Counted from the stretch's first letter, positions 663 to 13,087 are shown. The stretch is DNA of 32,000 bases from an uncultured Actinomycetes bacterium (GCA_963843975.1 CAWJMG010000001.1:300001-332000); one strand, 5' to 3'. The notes: generated by a model not told the origin, from the letters alone. Numbers and translations are program-made.

Positions 663-894
663 GGCGGCTTCGCCGCGGGGGCTCGAGGCGACGCGGCGGT
701 CCTCCCGGTGCAAGTGGGACCTCCACACACCGCGGCAGAATGAATGGCTCGGCAGGAATCTGCGGTGCCATTCCCGGAACAGGTGATCGGGTGTGTGGAG
801 GTGCCGCGACGAGGCCGTCAGCGGCGTCGCTTTGCGCCGAGGGATCCGACCCCGAGGAAGACTCCTCCCGAATTCGAGGGACCTCGCCGACCGC
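663..894. repeat. diverged copy (left part) of the sequence module that lies immediately downstream of ssrA; split by the IS256 insertion
   Basis: GGCGGCTTCGCCGC 663-676 = 11014-11027. GCGGCGGTCCTCCCG 693-707 = 11046-11060. GTGGAGGTGCCG 795-806 = ssrA 3' end 11162-11173. TCCTCCCGAATTCGAGGGACCTCGCCGACC 863-892 matches 11053-11082 at 28/30. Confidence 0.6.
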
Positions 895-2331
895 GGTCAC
901 GTCCCACCGCGTGGTGTAACTCGAGCCGGTCGTGATCGGCTTCGCGGTGGTGCTTGTCTGACTATGACGCCATGAGTTCGGGGACCGCCACCTCCTTGGT
1001 CGAGTCGAGGGTGGCGGCGCCGATCTGGGCCATCGAGTTCTCGGACAGGTAGCGGCGGTCGGAGACCTGCCATTCGTCGTGGGTCTCGATCAGGACCGCG
1101 CCGGCCAGGCGCAGCAGCGCCTTCGGGTTCGGGAAGACACCGACGACGTCGGTGCGGCGTTTGATCTCCTTGTTCACCCGCTCCAACGGGTTGGTCGACC
1201 AGATCTTCTTCCAGTGCGCGGGCGGGAAGTCCGCGAACGCGGTCACGTCGTCAGCGGCCTCGCGGAGCATCGCCTCGACCTTGGGGAACTGGCGGCCGAG
1301 CATGGTGGCGATGACGTCGAGCTGGTCGCGGACGTGCTCGGCGTCGGGTTGGGCGAAGATCGTGCGGACCGCGGCTGCGACCATCTCCTGCGACGCCTTG
1401 GGGACCTGGGCCAGGACGTTGCGCAGGAAGTGGACCCGGCACCGCTGCCAGGACGACCCGATCATCACCGCGGCGATAGCCGCCTTGAGGCCGGTGTGGG
1501 CGTCGGAGATGACCAGCTTCACCCCGTGCAGGCCGCGGGCCTTCAGCGAGCGCAGGAACGCGGTCCAGAACGCTCCCTCTTCGCTGTCGCCGACGGCGAA
1601 GCCCAGGACTTCCCTTCTCCCGTCAGCACTCACCCCGGTGGCGACCACGACGGCTTGGGACGCGACCCGCGACCCCTTGCCGCCCTTCCCACCACCGATG
1701 CGGGCCTTGCAGTAGGTCGCGTCGAGGAACACGTAGGGGAACTCGTCCTCGGACAGGTCCCGGTCAGCGAACGCTGCGACCTCGGTGTCGAGGTCCGCGC
1801 AGATCCTCGACACCTCGGACTTGGAGATCCCGGTGTCCGCACCGAGTGCCTTGACCAGGTCGTCGACCTTGCGCACGCTCGTGCCGGTGACGTAGGCCTC
1901 CATCACGACCGCGAACAGCGCCTGATCGATCCGGCGGCGCCGCTCGAGCAGCGACGGGAAGAACGACCCGGCCCGCAGCTTCGGGAGCGCCAGCTCGACG
2001 TCCCCGGCCTGGGTCGTGAACACCCGGTCGCGGTGACCGTTGCGCTGCACCACACGGGACTCGGTGCGCTGGTGACGCTCGGCGCCGATCACCGCGGTCG
2101 CCTCGGCCTCGATCAGCTCTTGCAAGATCACCTGCACGGCGTCGCGGATCATCTCCACGGACTCGCCGGCCTTCAACGCATCCAACACTTCGAGCAGGGC
2201 AGACTGGGACAGGGCCATCGTGTGTAGTTCCCTTCGCGAGTTCCTTGGTCGGTTCTCACGAAGCCTCACACGATGGCCCCTCAACGCTCAGGAGGCCCGC
2301 CCGGAGTTACACCACTCGACGGGACGTGACC
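895..2331 (-). mobile_element. IS256-family insertion sequence (1437 bp), apparently intact
   Basis: 28-bp imperfect terminal inverted repeats: GGTCACGTCCCACCGCGTGGTGTAACTC at 895-922, and the reverse complement of 2304-2331 (GGTCACGTCCCGTCGAGTGGTGTAACTC), 25/28 identical. Perfect 8-bp direct repeat CCGACCGC at 887-894 and 2332-2339, the size expected for an IS256 target duplication. Contains a single transposase ORF. Confidence 0.9.
962..2218 (-). CDS. IS256-family (mutator-type) transposase, 418 aa
   Basis: Translation MALSQSALLEVLDAL... shows the family-typical blocks ...FLDATYCKAR..., ...VISDAHTGLKAAI..., ...WQRCRVHFLRN..., ...STNPLERVNKEIKRRT.... ATG at 2218 is preferred over the tracked upstream start 2284, whose extra 22 aa are Arg-rich. 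TAG at 962-964. Confidence 0.93.
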   Translation of the reverse strand: MALSQSALLEVLDALKAGESVEMIRDAVQVILQELIEAEATAVIGAERHQRTESRVVQRNGHRDRVFTTQAGDVELALPKLRAGSFFPSLLERRRRIDQALFAVVMEAYVTGTSVRKVDDLVKALGADTGISKSEVSRICADLDTEVAAFADRDLSEDEFPYVFLDATYCKARIGGGKGGKGSRVASQAVVVATGVSADGRREVLGFAVGDSEEGAFWTAFLRSLKARGLHGVKLVISDAHTGLKAAIAAVMIGSSWQRCRVHFLRNVLAQVPKASQEMVAAAVRTIFAQPDAEHVRDQLDVIATMLGRQFPKVEAMLREAADDVTAFADFPPAHWKKIWSTNPLERVNKEIKRRTDVVGVFPNPKALLRLAGAVLIETHDEWQVSDRRYLSENSMAQIGAATLDSTKEVAVPELMAS

Positions 2332-2850: not shown

Positions 2851-3730
2851 ATGAGTTCGAACGGGAAGCTGTCCGGGTCTGAGCGCCAGGCAATGCTGCG
2901 CCTTGAGCCGTACTTGGGTCGCCTGGACCGCCTGGACGTCCCGGGAACCTCGGGGCTCCCGGACTTCATGGTGGCCGAAGGGCCGGAGGCCGGTGGCGCT
3001 CTCGAGGTGACGGAGTGGCTGGATTCCGATCGCGCAAAGCAGCGCGGTCCGATCGCCAACCAGAACGATTGGCAGATCTCCACTCGATGGGCCTGGTCAG
3101 TAGGGCTCCACAAGAAGGCTCAGGTCCGCAAGGTCCTCGGTGACGCTCGACTCGAGGCCGCTCTGGTCGACGCCGAACAACGAGGGCAGCGCCAGCTGCT
3201 TCGCTCCACGACTTCCGATGCCGTGCGAGAAGCTCTTCGACGACCTGCGCATCGACCACGTGTTCGGCTTCGTGGCCAAGCCCGGCCGAGAGGGTGCTGT
3301 ACGGGCTACGTGGGGTTCGTCGGCGGGCTGGGGCTGGGACGGAGCGGGCGTCGGCCAGTGGCTGGTGGGAGAGTTGCTGGTGTCCGCCTTGGTGCGCTCC
3401 AAGGTAGAGAAGCTGGTGCGGTCAGGCCATCAGCCGGCGCACCTTTACGTCGGGCTGGACGCACAGCTGCCCGCCGGGTACGGCGTGACCTCTGCGCTGG
3501 ACTCTGCCGTGCAGCCCGGCGGCGAACCGTTGGCTCTCCCTCAGGTCCCGTTGCCGGACGGCTTGGACACGTTGTGGATCTGGCCGAACACGCCGGAGCC
3601 GGGCCTGCGCCTTGAAGCCGACGGAACGTGGGAGATCGTGTTCGAGACCAAGGCGGCGTCGCAGCAGCTTTGGGCTGTTGCGACGAGCTGGGTCGATTTG
3701 AGCGGCCACACGACCGTAGGCTCAGGCTGA
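2851..3730 (+). pseudogene. hypothetical protein, reading frame broken by an apparent +1 nt insertion near 3222-3232
   Basis: ATG 2851 is preceded by GGAGG (2841-2845). Frame 1 is protein-like up to ...LLRSTTSDAV and then turns Arg/Gly-rich. Frame 2 (tracked ORF 3140..3730) is protein-like from ...EKLFDDLRIDHVFGFVAKPG to the TGA at 3728-3730. The span is 880 nt (3n+1). No family recognised. Confidence 0.5.
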
Positions 3731-4996
3731 CGGCTCTTGGCTGTCGACCATGAGCTCGGCGTGCACGCCGTCTGACCGACCCAGGGCCCGCAGAAGCCGG
3801 CCCACGAGTCGGTAGGTCAGCTGCCCGGACGCCTGCTCCATCTCCTCGGTCGTGACGACGCAGTAGTTACGGAAGTCGCCGCCGCCAACGGCGTACGCCT
3901 GTGGCCGGACTCGGAAGTTCCATCTGCTGTGCTCGAAGGCTGCCAAGCCCTCGATGCCAGTCGCGGCGGCACCGAGCAGCCACGGCCCTCGATAGCCGGT
4001 CTCGCGACCAACGTGCAGGGCCATGAGGATCAACTGTCGGGTGTACGCGACAGCCATGACATCGAAGATCTGCTGCACGGGGGTCTGGTCGCCATCTCGC
4101 AGGCCGTCGCTGAAGCGACCCGCGAAGAGCCGCAGCTGGCCGTCTTCGCTGAGTTCGACCTCCACGATGTCTTCCGGGTGGCTGTGACCGATGTCGGGGT
4201 TGAGCGTGCGGTCGGGGTTGAGCCCGTGGCTGGCGAACGCCGCCCCGTCCGGCCGTCGGGCCGGCTGGTTGGCGTCTCGCAGCTCAGGCACGAAGAGCTG
4301 ATGGCCGAGCGGAGAGACCTGCAGAGCGGCTGTCATCATCGCCCGGAAGCGGCTCTGCCAGTCGGACCCGTGCACCAGCGGGAGCGCCATCTCCAGCGTG
4401 GGCCGAACCGGTGAGGCGACTGCGAAGAAGTGGGCCTGCTCCCGGGTCGCCTCGGGTACGGGATCGCGGGCGATGAGCTCATCGAGGAGCTGCGCGCCCG
4501 CCTCCCCACGCAGGTGAAGCTGGGAGTGCAGCCGCGTCACGTCGGCGTCCGAGAGCCGGATCTTGGTCTTGTCGCCGCGACCCATGTACACGTGCTGGAC
4601 CATGTGCGGCGCCCGCGGCGACGCGGGCACATGGACGACGACGTAGCCGAGGCCCGGACCTCCGCCGGGGATGACCTCGGTCCGCAGGTACAGCGGTGGG
4701 TCGATGGCAGTCAGCGCGATCTGCTCGATGCGTTCGGGTAGACCGGCCAACTCAACGGGAGCCGGCTCCAGCCGCCCTTCGTTCTCGGCAACGCCGAGGA
4801 TCAAGGTGCCGCCGTCGATGGCGAACTGGGCCAGGTCGCGTGCGAGCTCTCGGTTGGCTGACTGGCCGCCTTCGACGGCCGACTTGAACTCGAGGTAGTG
4901 ATTCTCCTCGACCAGCCCGGATGCCAGGGCGTCACGAAGCTCGGCTTCGTTACGCGGTCTCCAGCGGGGTGTGCCGGGGCCCGTATAGACGGTCAC
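3722..4996 (-). CDS. AlbA_2/Schlafen-like domain protein with an uncharacterised C-terminal ~300 aa; fourth gene of the type I R-M operon
   Basis: 424 aa. The N-terminus ...[22 protein letters not shown]...[15 protein letters not shown]...[10 protein letters not shown]... fits my recollection of the AlbA_2 (PF04326) signature. The GTG start (4996-4994) overlaps the hsdR TGA (4995-4993) as GTGA. Confidence 0.75.
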
Positions 4997-7900
4997 GCTG
5001 CTTCCTCACTGGCGATGACTTCAGCCTGTTCGAGTACGAGTTGCGTAGCGGTGGGCTCCTGGTCGGGCGGGTAGCCGTACTTGAGCAGGAGCCGGCGGAT
5101 GGTGGCGCGGAGCTTGGCGCGGACCTGTTCCTTGACGTTCCAGTCGGTCTTGGCGTCGCGGCGGACGATCTCGACGAGCTCGTGGGCGATCTTCTTCAGG
5201 GTGTCGTCGCCCAGTTCCATAACGGCGGACTGGTTGGCACAGATGGCGTCGTAGAAGGCGAGCTCGTCGTTGTTCAGACCGAGCTGGGTGCCGCGGTCGG
5301 CCTCGGTCTTGAGAGCCTGGGCGAGGGCGACCAGTTCGGCAACGACCTGGGCGGCGTCGAGGGTGCGGTTCTGGTAGCGGAGCAGGGATGCTTCGAGCAT
5401 CTCGGAGAACTGCTTGCCGGTGACGATGTTGCGCTTCCCGACGCGGCGGATCTCGTCGTTGAGGAGCTTCTTGAGCATCTCGATCTGCAGGTTCGGGTTG
5501 TTCGCGGTCTTGAACTTGGCGATGAACGACTCGTCGATCAGGGACAGGTCGGGCTTGGCGATGCCGGCTTCCGCGTAGATGTCGATGACGCCGGTGCCGG
5601 TCATGGCGTCGGACAGGATCTGACGCACGGCGGTGTCGAGGGCGGCGTTGGGGTCGCCGTCCTCCCGGTCGGATCCTTCGATCTTGGAGATCTGGGCGCG
5701 GACTGCCTCGAAGAAGGCGACGTCGTCGCGGATCTTCAGGGCGGCGTCCGAGGGGACGCACATGATGTAGAGCTTGACCAGGTCGCGGGTGTTGGACATG
5801 AACCGGCACTTCAGGCAGGGCTGGTCCTTGGTGCAGGCGTCCTTGCCGGTGCCTGGGTGCTTGGACAGCAGGTATTCGACGGTTCCGGTGAGCGTGTCGA
5901 GGAAGGCCTTGGGACCGCCGGCGGCGAGCTTCTTGCGCCAGTCGTAGCCGTGCAGGATGGTCACGACGACGTCGTGCTTGGCCTTCATGCCGGGGATGGC
6001 CTGGGCGGCGATGTCCTGACCGAGCTCCTGGTTCTCCTGGTCGCGCTGGGTGTAGTCGGCAAGCGCGGATTTGAGGTCTTCGGCGATGCCGAGGTAGTCG
6101 ACGACGAGGCCGGCGGGCTTGTCCTTGAAGGTGCGGTTCACTCGGGCGATGGCCTGCATGAGGTTCGCGCCCTTCATGGGCTTGTCCACGTACATGGTGT
6201 GCATGGAAGGGGAGTCGAACCCGGTCAGCCACATGTCGCGGACGATGACCAGCTCGAGCGGGTCGTTGGGGTCCTTGGCGCGGGACTTCAGGTCGCGCAA
6301 GGCCTGCTTGGAGCGGATGTGGGGCTGCATGGTCTGGTCGTCGGCAGCGGAGCCGGTGATGACGACCTTGAGGACACCGGTGCCGTCATCGTCGGTTGCC
6401 CAGTCGGGGCGCAGCTTGGCGATCTCGTCGTAGAGGGCGACCGCGATGCGGCGCGACATGGTGACGATCATGGCCTTGCCGGCGAGGACCTCGCGGCGCT
6501 TCTCCCAGTGCTCGACGATGTCGGCGGCGAGCTCCTTGATGCGCTTCTCCGACCCGACGATGGCTTCGATCTGCGCCCAGCGGGTCTTCAGTCGCTCTTT
6601 GGCCTCCTCCTCCGTGCCGGACGTGGCGAGGGCGAACGCTTCGTCGAGCTGGGCGAGGGTGGACTTGGGGAGCTCGATCTTGGCCAGACGCGGCTCGTAG
6701 AGGACCTTGACGGTCGCTCCGTCGGCGACGGCCTGGGTGAGGTCGTAGACGTCGATGTAGTCGCCGAAGACCTGCTTGGTGGACTTGTCCGCCGACTCGA
6801 TCGGAGTGCCGGTGAACCCGATGTACGTGGCGTTCGGAAGTCCGTCGCGCAGGTGGCGGGCGAACCCGTCGATGAAGTCGTAGTTCGACCGGTGGGCCTC
6901 ATCGACCATCACCACGATGTTCATGCGATCCGACAGGGTCGGGAACGCCGTGCCAGCGTCCTTCTCCTCCTTGGAGAGCCCGAACTTCTGAATGGTGGAG
7001 AAGATGATCCCGCCCGACTGACGCTTCGCCAGCAGAGCCTTCAGGTCGTCGCGGCTGGTCGCCTGAAGGGGCTTCTCCGGCAGCGGAGCCCCGGGGCGGG
7101 AAGCGGCGAAGGTGTCGTCGAAGAGCTGGTCGTCGAGGTCGTTGCGGTCGGTCAGGACGACGATGGTGGGGTTCTCCATCGCCGGGTGGCGCATCATCTT
7201 GCCGGCGTACCACTCCATCTCCAGGCTCTTGCCTGAGCCCTGCGTGTGCCAGACGACACCGGCACGACCGTCGCCCTCGACCGCTTCCACGGTGGAGATG
7301 ACGGCCTTGTTGACGGCCCAATACTGGTGATACTTCGCGGTCTTCTTCACCAGCACGCTGGTCTTCAGGCCAGCGGCGTCGGTCTTGGACTCGTCGCTGT
7401 AGACGGTGAAGTTCCGGACCAGGTCGAGCAGGCGCTCCGGATTGAGCATGCCCTTGATGAGCACCTCGATCTGCGGCGTCGACGCTGGCGCGAGGTTCAT
7501 GCCGTCGATCGTCTTCCAGGGCGCGTAGTGCTCCCAGCCAGCGGTGAACGTCGCGGCGCGGGCCTGGACCCCGTCGGAGATCACGCTGACCTGGTTCCAG
7601 GTGAACGCGTCAGGGATCTGCTTCACATACGTCTGGATCTGGTTGAACGCACCTTTCAACGTCGCGTTCGACGTGCCGGCCCGCTTCAACTCGACGAGGA
7701 CGAGCGGAAGGCCGTTCACGAACAGCATCACGTCAGGCCGTCGTTCACTCTTCCCGATGATCGTGAACTGGTTGATCGCCACGAGGTCGTTGTTCGACCA
7801 GTCATCCCAATCGACAAGGCGGGCACGCACGCCACGAATCGACCCGTCAGCCATGCGGAACTGAACCGGAACGCCGAGCGTGAGGAGCTCGTAGGCACGC

Positions 7901-8157
7901 CAGTTCTCCGCCATCACCGACTGCGACTCAGCACGAAGCGCAGTCTTGACGACCTCGTCTACCGCGTCAGCGGGAAGGTCAGGGTTCAGACGCGAGACGG
8001 CATCACGCAGACGGCCGCGGAGGATCGGATCACGGTAGTCCGTGCGCTCAGCACCCGGCTCCCCCGGTGCAATGTCCGGGCCATAGACGAGCGCCCAGCC
8101 TTCTGACTGCAGATAGTCGAGGACTAGGAACTCAAGCTCGGACTCCGTCGGGATCAT
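4993..8157 (-). CDS. hsdR: type I restriction endonuclease subunit R (HsdR), 1054 aa
   Basis: N-terminal nuclease region ...[23 protein letters not shown].... Helicase motif I ...[10 protein letters not shown]... and DEAH box ...VMVDEAHRS.... ATG 8157 ([10 protein letters not shown]...) is chosen instead of tracked start 8244, which would overlap hsdS by 85 nt. Confidence 0.95.
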
Positions 8158-8159
8158 GC

Positions 8160-9278
8160 TCACGCAGCAACATCCCCCACCCGTACACGCCCCGACATCA
8201 ACAACGGCAGCAGCTCGTCGCGGGTGGACGCGAGCTCGCTGCATTCAACTTCGAGCACCTGCGCCGTGTTCCAGAGCGGGTGGATGACACTCATCAGCCG
8301 AGCCAGGTCGGATTCGGGAAGGACCTTGATGCTCCGCCGTAGAGCATTCTCCCTATTGAGGCCAGGTACTGCGGAATCCGTGTTCATCCCCGAGAGCCCA
8401 ACCGACTCCAGTGCGAGGAACGCGTACAGCATGGGAAGCTCAGTCTGCACATAGAAGGCCGTGTCAATGGGGAAGAAGTCGGCATCAACCCAGGTGACCG
8501 ATCCAACTGTCCCCTTACGGCCGACGACCACGCCTGGCCCCGACACCAATGACTTGTCATGCGAGTCGACGATCCCGGCGCTGCTCACAACTGGGAAACG
8601 GCCCGGTCGTCGTTCTCTCGCTGGAAGCGCCTTGCCGTACTTGAAGTCGATCACATCTCCCGCAACGACTGACGCGCCACATGCCACCGCTGACTCATAG
8701 GTGCTGCGAACTAGCGCTCGCAGATCCGCAATAAGCTGCCGGTCCACCTCGATGAGGTCATCCAGTGCTCCTAGAACCCCCGCGATACGACGCTGCTCGT
8801 CTAGGGGAGGAAGCAACACAGGCAGTGCGGACAGGATCTCGGTGTTCAGGTTCGGCATCGTCGCACCGACCGCCCGAGCGATAAGCCAGTCGTGAACGAG
8901 AGGTGACCCGAGCCAGTACGAAAGCCAGGTCGGATCCGCTGACTGGCCAGGACGCACCAGCAAGCATCCCGTTCCGCACAGCCAACCCGCTTGTGGGCCT
9001 CGAATGAGTGCCCGCTTGGTGATGTCACCTCGCCGGGAGTAGACGACGTCTCCGGCGCGAACCTTGTGTCGAGACAGCCTCTCGACGTGCTCGGTCGCGA
9101 CACGGGCGATGCCGGCCTCTTCCACTCGGTTCTCGCCGATGTTCGTCGGCATCACGACCGGCGTCCCCGCGGCGATGTAGTCACTCGCGTGGAGCTGGCT
9201 TCCGAACGGCCCCGTCTGAATCGAACCGCCAGCAGCGCACATCTCCCCGAGAGTGGTCCAGACAGCCGGGCTAGTCAT
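8160..9278 (-). CDS. hsdS: type I R-M specificity subunit (HsdS), 372 aa, two target-recognition domains
   Basis: Central conserved helix ...[27 protein letters not shown]... and C-terminal repeat ...[20 protein letters not shown] 9278 overlaps the hsdM stop (TAG 9271-9273) by 8 nt. The stop at 8160 lies 2 nt before the hsdR start. Confidence 0.92.
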
Positions 9279-10881
9279 CCGACGGCACTTCCAGTGAGAG
9301 AAGCACGGTCATGACGTTCGACTGGAGGCTAGCGCGAGCCTCGAATCCCGTAGAAACCGCAGCGCGGAGACGGGTGATCTTCTCCTCGAGGGGCTCTCCA
9401 TCGTCCTCGGCATCTTCAGCCCCGACGTATCGCCCTGGGGTGAGGACATGGTCGTGCGCACGGATGTCTTCGATCTTGACGGAGGCGCAGAAGCCGGGGA
9501 CGTCCTTGTACTCACCAGCCTCGGATTCGCCGCGCCATGCATTGAAGGTGCTGGCGATCTTGGCGATGTCCTCATCGGAGAGTTCGCGCACAGTTCGGGT
9601 GGCCATCGCGCCGAGGTTGCGAGCGTCGATGAACAGGATCTCGCCCTTGCGGTCACGCTGGTTGTGCTCACTCTTGACCTTGCGGTTGGACTTGTCCTTG
9701 GTCAGGAACCAGAGGCAGACGGGGATGCCGGTCGTGTAGAAGAGCTTGTCCGGCAGGGCGACGATGCACTCGACGAGATCGTCTTCGACGAGGTTCTTGC
9801 GGATCTCGCCCTCACCTGAGGTCTTGGAGGACAGGGAGCCGTTAGCGAGGACCGTCGCCATGGTTCCTGTCGGTACCAGGTGGTGGAGCATGTGCTGGAT
9901 CCACGCGAAGTTCGCGTTGCCGGCCGGCGGGGTGCCGTACTTCCAGCGCGGGTCGTCGCGGAGGTGTTCGCCGCCCCAGTCGGAGATGTTGAAGGGCGGG
10001 TTCGCGATCACGAAGTCAGCACGCAGGTCCGGGTGCTGGTCGTTGCCGAACGAGTCGCCCCACTGCGCGCCAAGGTTCGCGTCGATGCCGCGCAGGGCGA
10101 GGTTCATCTTGGCGAGCCGCCACGTGGTGGGGTTCATCTCCTGGCCGAAGACGGAGATGTCGTTGCGGACACCCCCGTGGGCCTTCACGAACTTGTCCGC
10201 CTGCACGAACATGCCGCCCGAGCCACAGGCGGGGTCGTAGACGCGGCCGTTGAACGGTTCGAGCATCTCGACGAGCAACTGCACGACCGAGCGTGGTGTG
10301 TAGAACTCGCCGCCGAGCTTGCCTTCTGCGGAGGCGAACTGGCCAACCATGTACTCGAATACGCGACCGAGAACGTCGAGGCCCTCGTGCTCTGCGGCGG
10401 TGAGGTCTTCGCGGGAAAACGTGTCGATCAGGCCACCGAGGGTGGCAGGCGTGAGCTCGCGGCGGGCGTAGTTCTTCGGGAGGACACCCTTGAGGGAGTC
10501 GTTCTCCTTCTCGATGGCGTCCATTGCCGCATCGATGCGTGAGCCGATGTCGGGCTGCTTGGCGGCCTTGCGGAGGTCCTCCCAGCGGTGACCCTCGGGG
10601 ACCCAGAAGACGCCTTCGGATGTGTACTCGTCGCGAGCCTCGAGGATGGCCTGCTTGGCCGCCTCAGACGGCATGTAGTAGTCGGAGTCGGGGTCGTCGA
10701 CGAGCGTCGCGAGCTGCGTCCGGCGCTGGTTGAAGACGTCCGAGACGTACTTGAGGAAGATCAGCCCGAGCACGACGTGCTTGTACTCGGCAGCGTCCAT
10801 CTGGCTGCGAAGCTTGTCCGCTGCCTGCCACAGGGACGCTTCGAGTCCCTGGCTTTCCTGGTTCTTGCTCCTCGGTGGCAC
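9271..10881 (-). CDS. hsdM: type I R-M N6-adenine DNA methyltransferase subunit (HsdM), 536 aa
   Basis: HsdM N-terminal domain (...[32 protein letters not shown]...). SAM motif ...[12 protein letters not shown]... and catalytic ...VIANPPFN.... GTG start at 10881. Confidence 0.95.
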
Positions 10882-10968: not shown

Positions 10969-11164
10969 GAGGTGCCGGGATCCGTCCCGAGGGGCGCAGC
11001 CCGACGACCAGCCGGCGGCTTCGCCGCAGTGGGGGTCGTGGCGGCGCGGCGGTCCTCCCGATTCCGAGGGACCTCGCCGACCCCTGCCCTTCGAGGAGCC
11101 CAACACAACGACGAGGAGCCCCGGCGCCGTAGCGCAGGGGCTCCTCGAAGTGCAGGGGTGAGTG
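10969..11164. repeat. ssrA-downstream flank module (copy adjacent to ssrA)
   Basis: GAGGTGCCGGGA 10969-10980 repeats ssrA 11165-11176, followed by a degraded T-arm-like stretch. Also contains GGCGGCTTCGCCGC 11014-11027, the 30-mer 11053-11082, the half-arm CGAGGAGCCC 11092-11101, a hairpin at 11112-11147, and GGGGTGAGTG 11155-11164. Paralogous to 663-894 plus 2332-2414. Confidence 0.6.
11112..11147 (-). terminator. hairpin immediately downstream of the ssrA 3' end (putative ssrA terminator)
   Basis: Perfect 11-bp stem CGAGGAGCCCC / GGGGCTCCTCG with a 14-nt loop, starting 16 nt after the tmRNA discriminator base. On the minus strand it is followed by TCGTTGTGTT. Confidence 0.55.
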
Positions 11165-11524
11165 GAGGTGCCGGGAATCGAACCCGGGTCCTTCGTTGGC
11201 GATCAGGGTCTTCTCCGGGCGCAGCCTGCTGTGTTTTTCTCGGCCCCGACAGTCACGCAGGCAAGCTGTCGACGGGCTCAGTCACTGTTTGATGTCCTGC
11301 GTCACCCCGTGACCGGGATGGCAGTAAGTCCCCTAACTGACGCCAGGAACCGGAGCGGGAACGCCCCCGGGCTGACGGACTTCAGGCTCGCTTAGGCAGC
11401 GAGGGCGAAGTCAGTGCGCTGAGAATTGGCACTTGTATTTAGGTGCTGGATCGTTTGCGAGATAACCAGCATCCTCGGCCCGCTTCTCCCATCACGACAG
11501 ACGAAGTCGAAACCGATCACCCCC
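11163..11524 (-). ncRNA. ssrA: tmRNA (SsrA), 362 nt, tag peptide ANSQRTDFALAA
   Basis: Minus strand starts GGGGGTGATCGGTTTCGAC.... It ends ...GGACCCGGGTTCGATTCCCGGCACCTCCA, a tRNA-Ala-like T-arm. The 7-bp acceptor stem includes a G3:U pair. Tag ORF GCC AAT TCT CAG CGC ACT GAC TTC GCC CTC GCT GCC TAA lies at 11430..11392. The terminal CCA is not encoded (CTC follows the discriminator A). smpB is 5.5 kb away. Confidence 0.95.
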
Positions 11525-11704: not shown

Positions 11705-13087
11705 ATGCGTTCGACTCTGACTGACCTCCCCTTGGAGCAGAAGGCTGCCCGCGCGGTCTCCGCTCTGATGGAGGCCACGGAGCTGGTCGCCGAGGCTGCA
11801 CGTGAGGGGGCGTTCGCCGCGGCCCCTGCGGCCGTTCAGCCGGCCCTGGCCATAGCCGTGCTGCGCTCGGCCGACCAGGCCAAGGCCGCCGCCACCGCGG
11901 CGATCGCCGCGGTCGACTCCTCCGGCTGGTTGCCCGACGGGCAGGTGTCCCTCGCGCGCTGGATCGAGAAGGTCGCTGGCCTGCCCAGCCGGGAGGCCAA
12001 CGGCCTGCTGGGGCATGCCCGCGCCCTGACCGACGACTACTCCGGTCTGCTCGACGCCTGGCTCACCGGCGAGGCGTCGGGCTCGATGGTCAGCACCCTG
12101 CGCCACGGCATCGACAAGGCTCTGCGCCGCGTGCCCCGTGACGATCGCGCAGCCAAGCGCGCCGCCCTGGAGTCGACGTTCCTCGACTACGCCGACCGCA
12201 GCACCGCCGACCGCGTCGCCCAGGCCCTGAAGAACTATCGCGCCAAGGTCGACCCCGACGGCGCCAACCAGGCCGAGATCGACGCGAACGACGAGCAGCA
12301 CATCCGCTTCACCCCCGTGGGGGAAGGCGTCGTCGTCAAGGGGTGGCTGTCCAACGAGACCTACGCCCAGATCCGCACCGCCCTCGAGCAGGTCGTCGAC
12401 GGCTGGTATCGCAACAACGAGCTCCCCGACGAAGACCGCATCGACTGCGACGGCGACACCCGCGCCGCCGACCGCAAGAAGCGCCAGCGCCAGGCCCACC
12501 TGCACGCGTTGGCCCTCGCGCAGATCTGCACCGACGCCCTCGAGTCCGGAAGCCTCGGCACCCACCACGGCCTCCTCCCCCGCATCGCCCTACGTGGCAG
12601 CCTCGACCGCCTCGGCGTCGGACTCGGAGGCGAGATGCTCCTGCCCGGGCACGACACCCCCGCGATGGTCATCCCTGAGGCGTTCCGCCGCTTCCTGTGC
12701 GACGCCGAGATCAGCCCCATCATCACCGCCAACCCGGCCAACGGCCTCCGACCGATCGACCTGGTCCTGCGCGAGGCAAACGAGCCATTCCTCTACGTCG
12801 GCCGCGACTACCGCGTCGTCCCACCTCGCCTGCGCCGGGCCCTGGAGCACCGCGACGGGCACTGCGCCTTCCCCGGCTGCGGTGTGAACGTCCGCCGCTG
12901 CCGCGCCCACCACGTGCAGCACTGGGAGCACGGCGGATTGACCGATCTCGACAACTGCGTGCTCCTCTGCGAAACCCACCACAGATCAGTGCACGAAGGC
13001 GGCTGGACCGTCACAGCGGTCGGCTGCGATGCCCGCCTTCCCGGCTACTGGCAGTTCGACCCGCCACCCGACCGACGCCGGCCCTGA
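11705..13087 (+). CDS. DUF222 domain / HNH endonuclease family protein (actinobacterial 13E12-type), 460 aa
   Basis: C-terminal HNH motif ...DGHCAFPGCGVNVRRCRAHHVQHWEHGGLTDLDNCVLLCETHHRSVHEGGW.... The long Ala-rich helical N-terminal region is typical of DUF222 proteins. Confidence 0.88.
   Translation: MRSTLTDLPLEQKAARAVSALMEATELVAEAAREGAFAAAPAAVQPALAIAVLRSADQAKAAATAAIAAVDSSGWLPDGQVSLARWIEKVAGLPSREANGLLGHARALTDDYSGLLDAWLTGEASGSMVSTLRHGIDKALRRVPRDDRAAKRAALESTFLDYADRSTADRVAQALKNYRAKVDPDGANQAEIDANDEQHIRFTPVGEGVVVKGWLSNETYAQIRTALEQVVDGWYRNNELPDEDRIDCDGDTRAADRKKRQRQAHLHALALAQICTDALESGSLGTHHGLLPRIALRGSLDRLGVGLGGEMLLPGHDTPAMVIPEAFRRFLCDAEISPIITANPANGLRPIDLVLREANEPFLYVGRDYRVVPPRLRRALEHRDGHCAFPGCGVNVRRCRAHHVQHWEHGGLTDLDNCVLLCETHHRSVHEGGWTVTAVGCDARLPGYWQFDPPPDRRRP

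Follow-up and report, generated by a model that had tools for sequence, protein, structure and literature searches.

The stretch of DNA analysed here (the window: 32,000 nucleotides from an uncultured Actinomycetes bacterium, GCA_963843975.1 CAWJMG010000001.1:300001-332000) carries on its minus strand, from position 10881 to 3722, four open reading frames (ORFs) in a row: hsdM, hsdS, hsdR, and a fourth gene whose 424-amino-acid product is the main subject of this report. The first three constitute a complete type I restriction-modification (R-M) system, in which HsdM, HsdS and HsdR, each with its characteristic domains in Pfam, NCBIfam and PADLOC, are encoded in one operon; the C-terminal domain of HsdR is HindI-like. 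The coordinates of these genes, of the domains of the fourth protein and of the flanking features are given in Table 1.

The junctions between the four genes are tight. The hsdM stop codon (TAG, 9273-9271) lies beyond the hsdS start (ATG, 9278) such that the two genes share 8 nt (ATGACTAG), and the hsdS stop (TGA, 8162-8160) is separated from the hsdR start (ATG, 8157) by a gap of 2 nt. An alternative and longer hsdR reading frame could begin with an ATG at 8244, which would overlap hsdS by 85 nt; the HSDR_N alignment begins at residue 4 counted from the start at 8157. The hsdR stop (TGA, 4995-4993) sits within a GTGA, in a 4-nt start/stop overlap with the GTG (4996-4994) of the fourth gene, and a Shine-Dalgarno-like GAGGAAG is located 6 nt upstream of that GTG. 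We take the GTG at 4996 as the start because there is no other in-frame start codon before the conserved residues W12 and P14. An earlier model-generated reading of this DNA (the original prediction) had described all three junctions in just this way, and they read exactly so in the sequence. The GTGA junction, together with the same HsdR C-terminus, is also found in two metagenomic orthologue loci, L090 and L093, and the coupling is therefore conserved there and is not a chance overlap. Scans of the operon for promoters and terminators gave nothing exceeding shuffled expectation.

Table 1. Features of the operon, the fourth protein and the surrounding island (window coordinates).
Feature	Coordinates	Strand	Evidence
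hsdM, type I methyltransferase subunit, 536 aa	9271..10881	-	N6_Mtase 1.5e-110, HsdM_N 2.2e-29 (Pfam); PADLOC MTase_I 1.8e-199
hsdS, specificity subunit, 372 aa, two target-recognition halves	8160..9278	-	Methylase_S (Pfam); PADLOC Specificity_I models on both halves
hsdR, restriction/translocase subunit, 1054 aa from ATG 8157	4993..8157	-	HSDR_N, SWI2_SNF2, T1R_D3-like, T1RH-like_C 9e-110 (Pfam); TIGR00348 7e-176 (NCBIfam)
Fourth gene, prokaryotic Schlafen (pSlfn) protein, 424 aa, GTG start	3722..4996	-	Pfam, fold and conservation evidence
Schlafen/AlbA_2 nuclease domain, residues ~15-149	4550..4954	-	Pfam residues 31-145; Foldseek probability 1.00
Catalytic motif E31-N-H-Y-L-E36-F-K38, Ex4(E/D)xK	4883..4906	-	Conservation in 108 homologues; motif defined in PMC13056530, PMC13462974
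Long linker helix, residues 150-176	4469..4549	-	AlphaFold2 (AF2) secondary structure
C-terminal alpha/beta domain, unrecognised fold, residues 177-424, putative sensor/regulatory module	3725..4468	-	AF2
tmRNA (ssrA), 3' end facing island	11160..11524	-	ARAGORN; Rfam RF00023, 135 bits
Distal diverged copies of ssrA 3' end and flank, likely far island edge	678..892		789-809, 863-892, 678-707
Mutator/IS256-family transposase within island	962..2284	-	Transposase_mut 4e-133
Convergent orphan gene G5, frameshift near 3210-3235	2851..3730	+	tblastn of intact 288-aa L082 protein

The fourth protein matches the Pfam family SLFN_AlbA_2 (PF04326) over residues 31-145, scoring 25.5 bits against a cut-off of 25.3, and the same family is matched by 70 of 108 homologues with a best E-value of 3e-9. 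AF2, supplied with the family alignment, returns a very confident two-domain model (mean predicted local distance difference test, pLDDT, 92.9; predicted template modelling score, pTM, 0.91), with an alpha/beta N-domain and an alpha/beta C-terminal domain connected by a long helix. When this model is compared with the PDB using Foldseek only the N-domain finds matches, namely the N-domain of pig SLFN11 (7fex), DIP2311 (3lmm), 2kyy, 9o0d, SLFN5 and SLFN14, with a probability of 1.00 for 7fex, for 2kyy (the AlbA_2 domain of a RecG-like protein) and for 9o0d (the tRNase domain of SAMD9). The residues of the putative active site are almost invariant: E31 is present in 107 of the 108 homologues, and an acidic residue at position 36, K38 and H33 are present in all of them. 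The Ex4(E/D)xK motif is the Mg2+ active site that is needed both for tRNA cleavage and for phage defence in RorSlfn5 and CbCash (PMC13056530, PMC13462974), and because it is present in the fourth protein and kept across the family, we identify this protein as a prokaryotic Schlafen whose nuclease site appears to be active. The AlbA_2/Schlafen N-terminus of the original prediction is thus borne out by the Pfam match, the fold and the intact E31/E36/K38 triad. Its second observation, that the remaining ~300 residues lack HATPase-like or helix-turn-helix (HTH) parts, holds family-wide, with no Pfam family besides PF04326, HATPase and HTH included, in any of the 108 homologues. We note that the same genome encodes a stronger AlbA_2 match (51.6 bits) outside the window, within a 591-aa open frame (G000:C1:1120456-1120803, minus strand).

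The C-terminal domain also forms a confident separate domain when modelled alone with 73 homologues (pLDDT 91.7, pTM 0.91). The original prediction had left this part without an assignment, and separate profile searches, structure prediction and Foldseek all leave its fold unrecognised. No Pfam match was found for any of the 73 members, a C-domain profile matched no PDB sequence, and the best Foldseek hits, at E=0.13 (probability 0.33, TM-score <=0.32) in the PDB and at E=0.015 with a probability of 0.16 among the BFVD viral folds, are not significant. The weak PDB matches are to two-layer alpha/beta folds of the AdoMetDC, TBP, urate oxidase or MoaC type, none of which is strong enough to name the domain by. 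Within the family the mean pairwise identity is 58% for the N-domain and 38% for the C-domain, and the published pSlfn5 family has the same contrast between a conserved effector and a variable sensor (PMC13056530); we therefore count these values in favour of an effector/sensor arrangement, with the C-domain as the putative sensor or regulatory module. A published survey found unannotated fusion partners in 17% of pSlfn proteins and 'TBP-like' partners in 1.5% (PMC13056530), and the present family probably falls into one or other of these two bins.

The family is conserved over its full length. A word-indexed search gave 184 matches, nearly all of 400-450 aa, and an exhaustive profile search 908 clusters at 50% identity (E<=1e-30). 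Most of its members belong to Actinomycetota, among them Streptomyces, Nocardia and Mycobacterium relatives, a small number belong to Chloroflexota, Dormibacterota, Gemmatimonadota and other groups, and the homologues are annotated at source as 'AlbA family DNA-binding', 'ATP-binding' or 'helix-turn-helix domain-containing'. Gene neighbourhoods were compared at 80 loci on contigs chosen at one genome per species, and at a further 39 metagenome loci and three viral loci (IMG/VR); genes in the fetched loci were called with a simple script based on G+C content at third codon positions, and R-M genes were detected with phmmer using three to four diverse query sets (E<1e-5). Many of the metagenomic contigs are short.

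In a maximum-likelihood tree every R-M-linked copy except one is placed in a single clade with the window gene (support 97/96). The exception, L071, nests among the Streptomyces copies and is an independent R-M-linked case. Within the window's clade eight of the ten informative loci are linked to R-M genes (the window, L090, L093, L082, L083, L008, L009 and L096), which amounts to about four or five independent R-M partnerships, since the members are related; the unlinked members are L094/L095, where the gene lies behind a NERD gene, and L097. The linked loci differ in their R-M genes to a considerable extent. For example, the L082 protein is 81% identical to the window's fourth protein, with an HsdM that is 27% identical to the window's, an EcoEI-type HsdR C-terminus, and the gene order R-S-M-X (X being the Schlafen gene). 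At L083 a set of hsdM-S-R genes is followed by YgjP and MazE-like genes and then by X, and the HsdR is 30% identical to that of the window. At the Nanopelagicaceae-type loci L008, L009 and L096 HsdM and HsdR are ~90% identical and the X proteins only 57-73%, a pattern that points to much faster evolution of the Schlafen gene than of its R-M partner, or to its replacement. From these partner differences it follows that the adjacency has survived exchange of either partner and, judged by such sequence comparisons, it exceeds what inheritance as one cassette would give. Nor is chance a likely cause of the adjacency: if a genome of 4-8 Mb holds one type I system, we estimate that well under 1% of randomly chosen genes would be found within 10 kb of it. 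The coupling seen in the window is not conserved across the clade; in L082, L008, L009, L096 and L083 either a gap of 30-50 nt or a pair of other genes separates X from the R-M genes. The two intervening genes of L083 (positions 5540-6497, from hsdR to the Schlafen gene) encode a YgjP-like/SprT-like metallopeptidase and a 65-aa MazE/AbrB-like protein, the latter an antitoxin-like neighbour that lies directly upstream of the nuclease gene.

Schlafen domains are also found joined to HsdR itself. A sample of 301 genomes of the same phylum contains 17 AlbA_2 matches within ORFs of 1035-1321 aa, and the five of these that were checked (L141-L145) are all HsdR proteins, 1167-1198 aa in length, that end in a ~150-residue Schlafen domain with an intact Ex4ExK. 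The fused domains have only remote sequence similarity to the N-domain of the window protein (BLAST E 0.09-1.3), and they show a recurrent design and not common descent.

Across the wider family the picture is different, with more than 95% of members located away from R-M genes. An hsdM-S-R set lies directly upstream in three of the 80 species loci, L008 and L009 (both Nanopelagicaceae) and L071 (Streptomyces, with a truncated copy), and there are no R-M genes within reach in the other 77, nor in any of the 42 metagenome or viral loci; the 39 metagenome loci contain no relative closer than 48% identity and no R-M linkage, and relatives are encoded on just three IMG/VR contigs. The original prediction had raised the question of whether orthologues lie systematically 3' of hsdR, and R-M linkage proves to be a property of the orthologous clade and not of the family as a whole. 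Clustering of four genes per side at the 80 loci identified no conserved partner gene, the commonest neighbour being a Ser/Thr kinase in nine closely related Streptomyces loci. The neighbours are heterogeneous and include integrases, a TrwC relaxase, Replic_Relax, transposases, NERD, toxin-antitoxin pairs and PD-T4-6/Stk2-type Ser/Thr kinases, as well as single AbiJ, AbiTii or Abi_C genes. In a Streptomyces subclade (L012, L015, L024, L025, L027, L029, L043 and others) the family members are flanked by Ser/Thr protein kinases of ~500-530 aa that match the PADLOC PD-T4-6/Stk2/mad6 models, and also by a DEAD/HA-domain helicase; here the family may occupy a defence neighbourhood of another kind. 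A relative that is 49% identical (L084, on a 15-kb JGI contig) lies among many small unannotated genes beside a large serine recombinase, and its setting looks like a prophage or an integrative element.

The operon is situated directly beyond the 3' end of ssrA, the transfer-messenger RNA (tmRNA) gene, in what is, by composition and comparison with related genomes, an acquired island of ~10 kb that contains the R-M operon, the Schlafen gene, the gene G5, decayed ORFs and the IS256-family transposase; no integrase was seen inside it. The R-M genes have a G+C content of 62.6-64.5%, compared with 70-73% for the native genes beyond ssrA, and searches of 24 genomes of the same genus found neither hsdR nor the fourth gene. 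At the likely far edge of the island, 789-809 is a copy of the tmRNA 3' end (19 of 21 positions, or 90%, identical to 11156-11176), and two further pieces are copies of its flank (863-892 and 11053-11082, 93%; 678-707 and 11031-11060, 90%). The three distal pieces are not arranged in the same order as their proximal counterparts, and no exact repeat of the tmRNA 3' end that could act as an attachment (att) site was found, even when as many as 3 mismatches over 23 nt were allowed. A gene coding for a 460-aa protein with DUF222 and HNH endonuclease domains directly adjoins the tmRNA gene on its other flank (11705-13087, plus strand).

The gene G5 converges on the fourth gene, which it overlaps tail-to-tail by 9 nt at its 3' end. 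In the window it is split, with residues 1-125 of the L082 protein aligning in frame +1 (2851-3225) and residues 109-288 in frame +2 (3176-3715). G5 is intact in L082 and is also present downstream of the Schlafen gene in L090 and L093, so that it accompanies this gene despite a different R-M partner. It has no Pfam match and no further homologue among 5.8 billion proteins, and with homologues confined to four loci it was rejected as a general partner of the family.

We consider it reasonably probable that the product of the fourth gene is an anti-phage Schlafen nuclease that acts as a single chain and is co-expressed with the R-M system as part of a layered defence. The N-terminal AlbA_2/Schlafen domain would be a metal-dependent RNase using the E31/E36/K38 triad, and its most likely targets, to judge from RorSlfn5, CbCash and human SLFN11, would be tRNA loops. 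The fast-evolving C-domain of ~250 residues, joined to it by the long helix, would hold the nuclease silent until a phage-derived cue is met, whereupon tRNA cleavage would stall translation and the infection would be aborted. The gene is carried on the island, itself a horizontal acquisition, that lies at the 3' end of ssrA, and its expression as the last hsdMSR cistron, if the genes are co-transcribed, would give the cell two lines of defence at once, the first aimed at DNA and the second at RNA. The low G+C content, the abutment to ssrA, the insertion sequence and the absence from the 24 same-genus genomes count for this reading, as do the family members that lie beside mobile-element, Abi-type, NERD, toxin-antitoxin and kinase genes, the faster divergence of the X proteins at L008, L009 and L096, and the 4-nt overlap with its GAGGAAG, which is conserved in L090 and L093. 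Several observations weigh against it. The Pfam score of the fourth protein exceeds the cut-off by just 0.2 bits, its PADLOC and NCBIfam scans matched no model, and a profile of the whole family found nothing among PDB sequences. Many family members are flanked by ordinary housekeeping genes; ~30% of published pSlfn genes are without defence neighbours, and five of the seven tested Enterobacterales systems failed to protect against the phages of the test panel (PMC13056530). The trigger, like the activity that it would release, is one that we infer, and the clade-specific retention beside type I R-M genes suggests more than simple co-location.

A rival reading, which we regard as unlikely, is that the fourth protein is a guard similar to PrrC. 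PrrC and RloC are anticodon nucleases linked to type I/III R-M loci and have an ABC-type NTPase domain. Here the C-domain would bind the type I enzyme, or free HsdR/HsdM, and keep the nuclease latent until a phage anti-restriction protein, an inhibitor of the Ocr/ArdA/Stp type, disabled or remodelled the R-M complex and so freed the nuclease to cut tRNA; this would make the fourth gene a genuine accessory effector of restriction-modification. At the eight linked loci of the clade the gene is on the same strand as a type I operon and at its 3' end, and this adjacency has outlasted swaps among at least four unrelated R-M partner lineages, which differ in the type of HsdR C-terminus (HindI-like or EcoEI-like) and in gene order (M-S-R-X, R-S-M-X and M-S-R-YgjP-MazE-X). 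However, HsdM or HsdR is just 24-38% identical between these lineages, and it is hard to see how one C-domain could recognise them all. The independent Streptomyces case and the HsdR proteins with a C-terminal Schlafen domain (all five checked), which are Rosetta-stone-type fusions, favour a functional connection, and translational coupling would set the stoichiometry with HsdR; but the coupling is absent from the five clade loci with gaps or intervening genes, two clade members adjoin NERD or unknown genes instead, and 77 of the 80 species loci and all 42 metagenome or viral loci have no R-M genes within reach. The fourth protein has no PrrC- or RloC-like NTPase module, and defence genes often sit within hsd loci without depending on them functionally. 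What keeps the guard model alive is the linkage in the clade together with the HsdR fusions. A more specific form of it, which we also think unlikely, is that the window's clade is the Schlafen counterpart of PrrC, a tRNA nuclease whose C-domain of novel fold docks on a conserved surface of type I enzymes and which fires once a phage anti-restriction protein disables them, with the HsdR-Schlafen fusions as the covalent version. The proposal in the original prediction of an accessory effector and not a passenger is not supported as it was put: within the clade the gene does stay 3' of type I operons despite the exchange of partners, but the off-R-M location of most of the family, the two unlinked clade members and the single-gene action of characterised pSlfn proteins speak against it.

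Two further explanations were considered. The gene could be an addiction or stabilisation module, in which a toxin-like nuclease acts against cells that lose the island or the R-M operon and is possibly neutralised by G5 or, in L083, by the MazE-like protein. The position of the 65-aa MazE/AbrB-like gene, the tail-to-tail arrangement of G5 at four loci even with a different R-M partner, and the frequent occurrence of the family on mobile elements are all compatible with this; in the window, however, G5 is frameshifted and the nuclease gene is intact, so that, unless the frameshift arose in assembly, G5 cannot be required as an antitoxin here. As there is also no conserved small partner across the family, and G5 has no homologues outside the subclade, we consider this explanation quite improbable. 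A very improbable one is that the protein is a non-catalytic nucleic-acid binder, such as an accessory factor that binds DNA or a protein regulating the hsd operon. The database names of the homologues that refer to DNA binding or to a helix-turn-helix would fit, and the AlbA_2 domains of SAMD9 and SLFN5 also bind DNA according to the descriptions of the Foldseek matches, but the catalytic triad is invariant across the homologues, no HTH or other Pfam domain is found in any member, and most members are not beside R-M genes that they could regulate.

Schlafen tRNases connect bacterial and human antiviral immunity, and few bacterial members have been studied (those with Ig-like, DUF262 or Csx15 partner domains). 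A compact, confidently modelled protein of 420 residues with an intact active site and an unrecognised partner domain is a tractable subject in which to look for a novel mechanism by which phages are sensed. Back-up nucleases that target RNA may stand guard over restriction enzymes widely, an idea that so far rests mainly on PrrC and RloC; the HsdR-Schlafen fusions and the clade that stays with type I operons offer a concrete means of testing it.

Comparison with known systems places the fourth protein at some distance from these two nucleases. It shares with them a probable tRNA-targeting nuclease gene in a type I R-M operon, and a plausible role as a back-up when restriction fails. However, its fold is unrelated, it has no ABC-type NTPase domain and no match to the PrrC or RloC families in Pfam, NCBIfam or PADLOC, and its gene follows hsdR and does not lie between hsdM and hsdS. 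The HsdR-Schlafen fusions have the same order of modules, an HsdR body followed by an Ex4ExK Schlafen domain, which in the window are separated only by the GTGA overlap, although the ~150-residue fused domains have no extra C-terminal domain. Human SLFN11, SLFN13 and SLFN14 and the tRNase domain of SAMD9 share the N-domain fold and the acidic-acidic-lysine motif, but these eukaryotic proteins have two-lobed nuclease cores together with helicase or other large modules, and the identity is 10-16%. In contrast to the AlbA_2-HATPase_c_4-HTH proteins of the COG2865 type, neither the window protein nor its 108 homologues has a GHKL-type ATPase or an HTH, and the fold search with the C-domain was negative.

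The closest counterparts are the bacterial Schlafen proteins. A 'Cluster 4' of Schlafens, described bioinformatically, has C-terminal domains of unknown nature and R-M as its nearest defence system (PMC13462974). It shares with the window's clade the Schlafen domain, the unknown C-terminal domain and the R-M neighbourhood, and compared by description it is the best fit for this clade; the R-M linkage of the present family, however, is confined to one clade. An Enterococcus Schlafen with an unannotated C-terminus provides broad abortive-infection defence (PMC13552941). The pSlfn defence nucleases, such as RorSlfn5 (Slfn with an Ig-like sensor) and EcoSlfn7 (DUF262-Slfn), were described by Perez Taboada et al. 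(Nat Microbiol 2026; PMC13056530), and those characterised act as single genes. Like them, the fourth protein is a single polypeptide with an N-terminal Slfn/AlbA_2 domain, an Ex4(E/D)xK close to the N-terminus and a fused non-nuclease domain, combines a conserved nuclease with a variable second domain, and is encoded on an acquired island of a defence type. It differs in that its C-domain is not Ig-like, DUF262, HisKinase or HTH, having only weak matches to TBP/AdoMetDC-like topologies (E>=0.13), and in that it is actinobacterial; the unannotated and TBP-like classes of the survey, into one of which it would fall, are uncharacterised. The pSlfn defence class, first described in 2025-2026, is already published, and the window locus is an uncharacterised new example of it and not a new kind of system; what is particular to this locus is the unrecognised fold of the C-domain and a clade that tracks type I operons.

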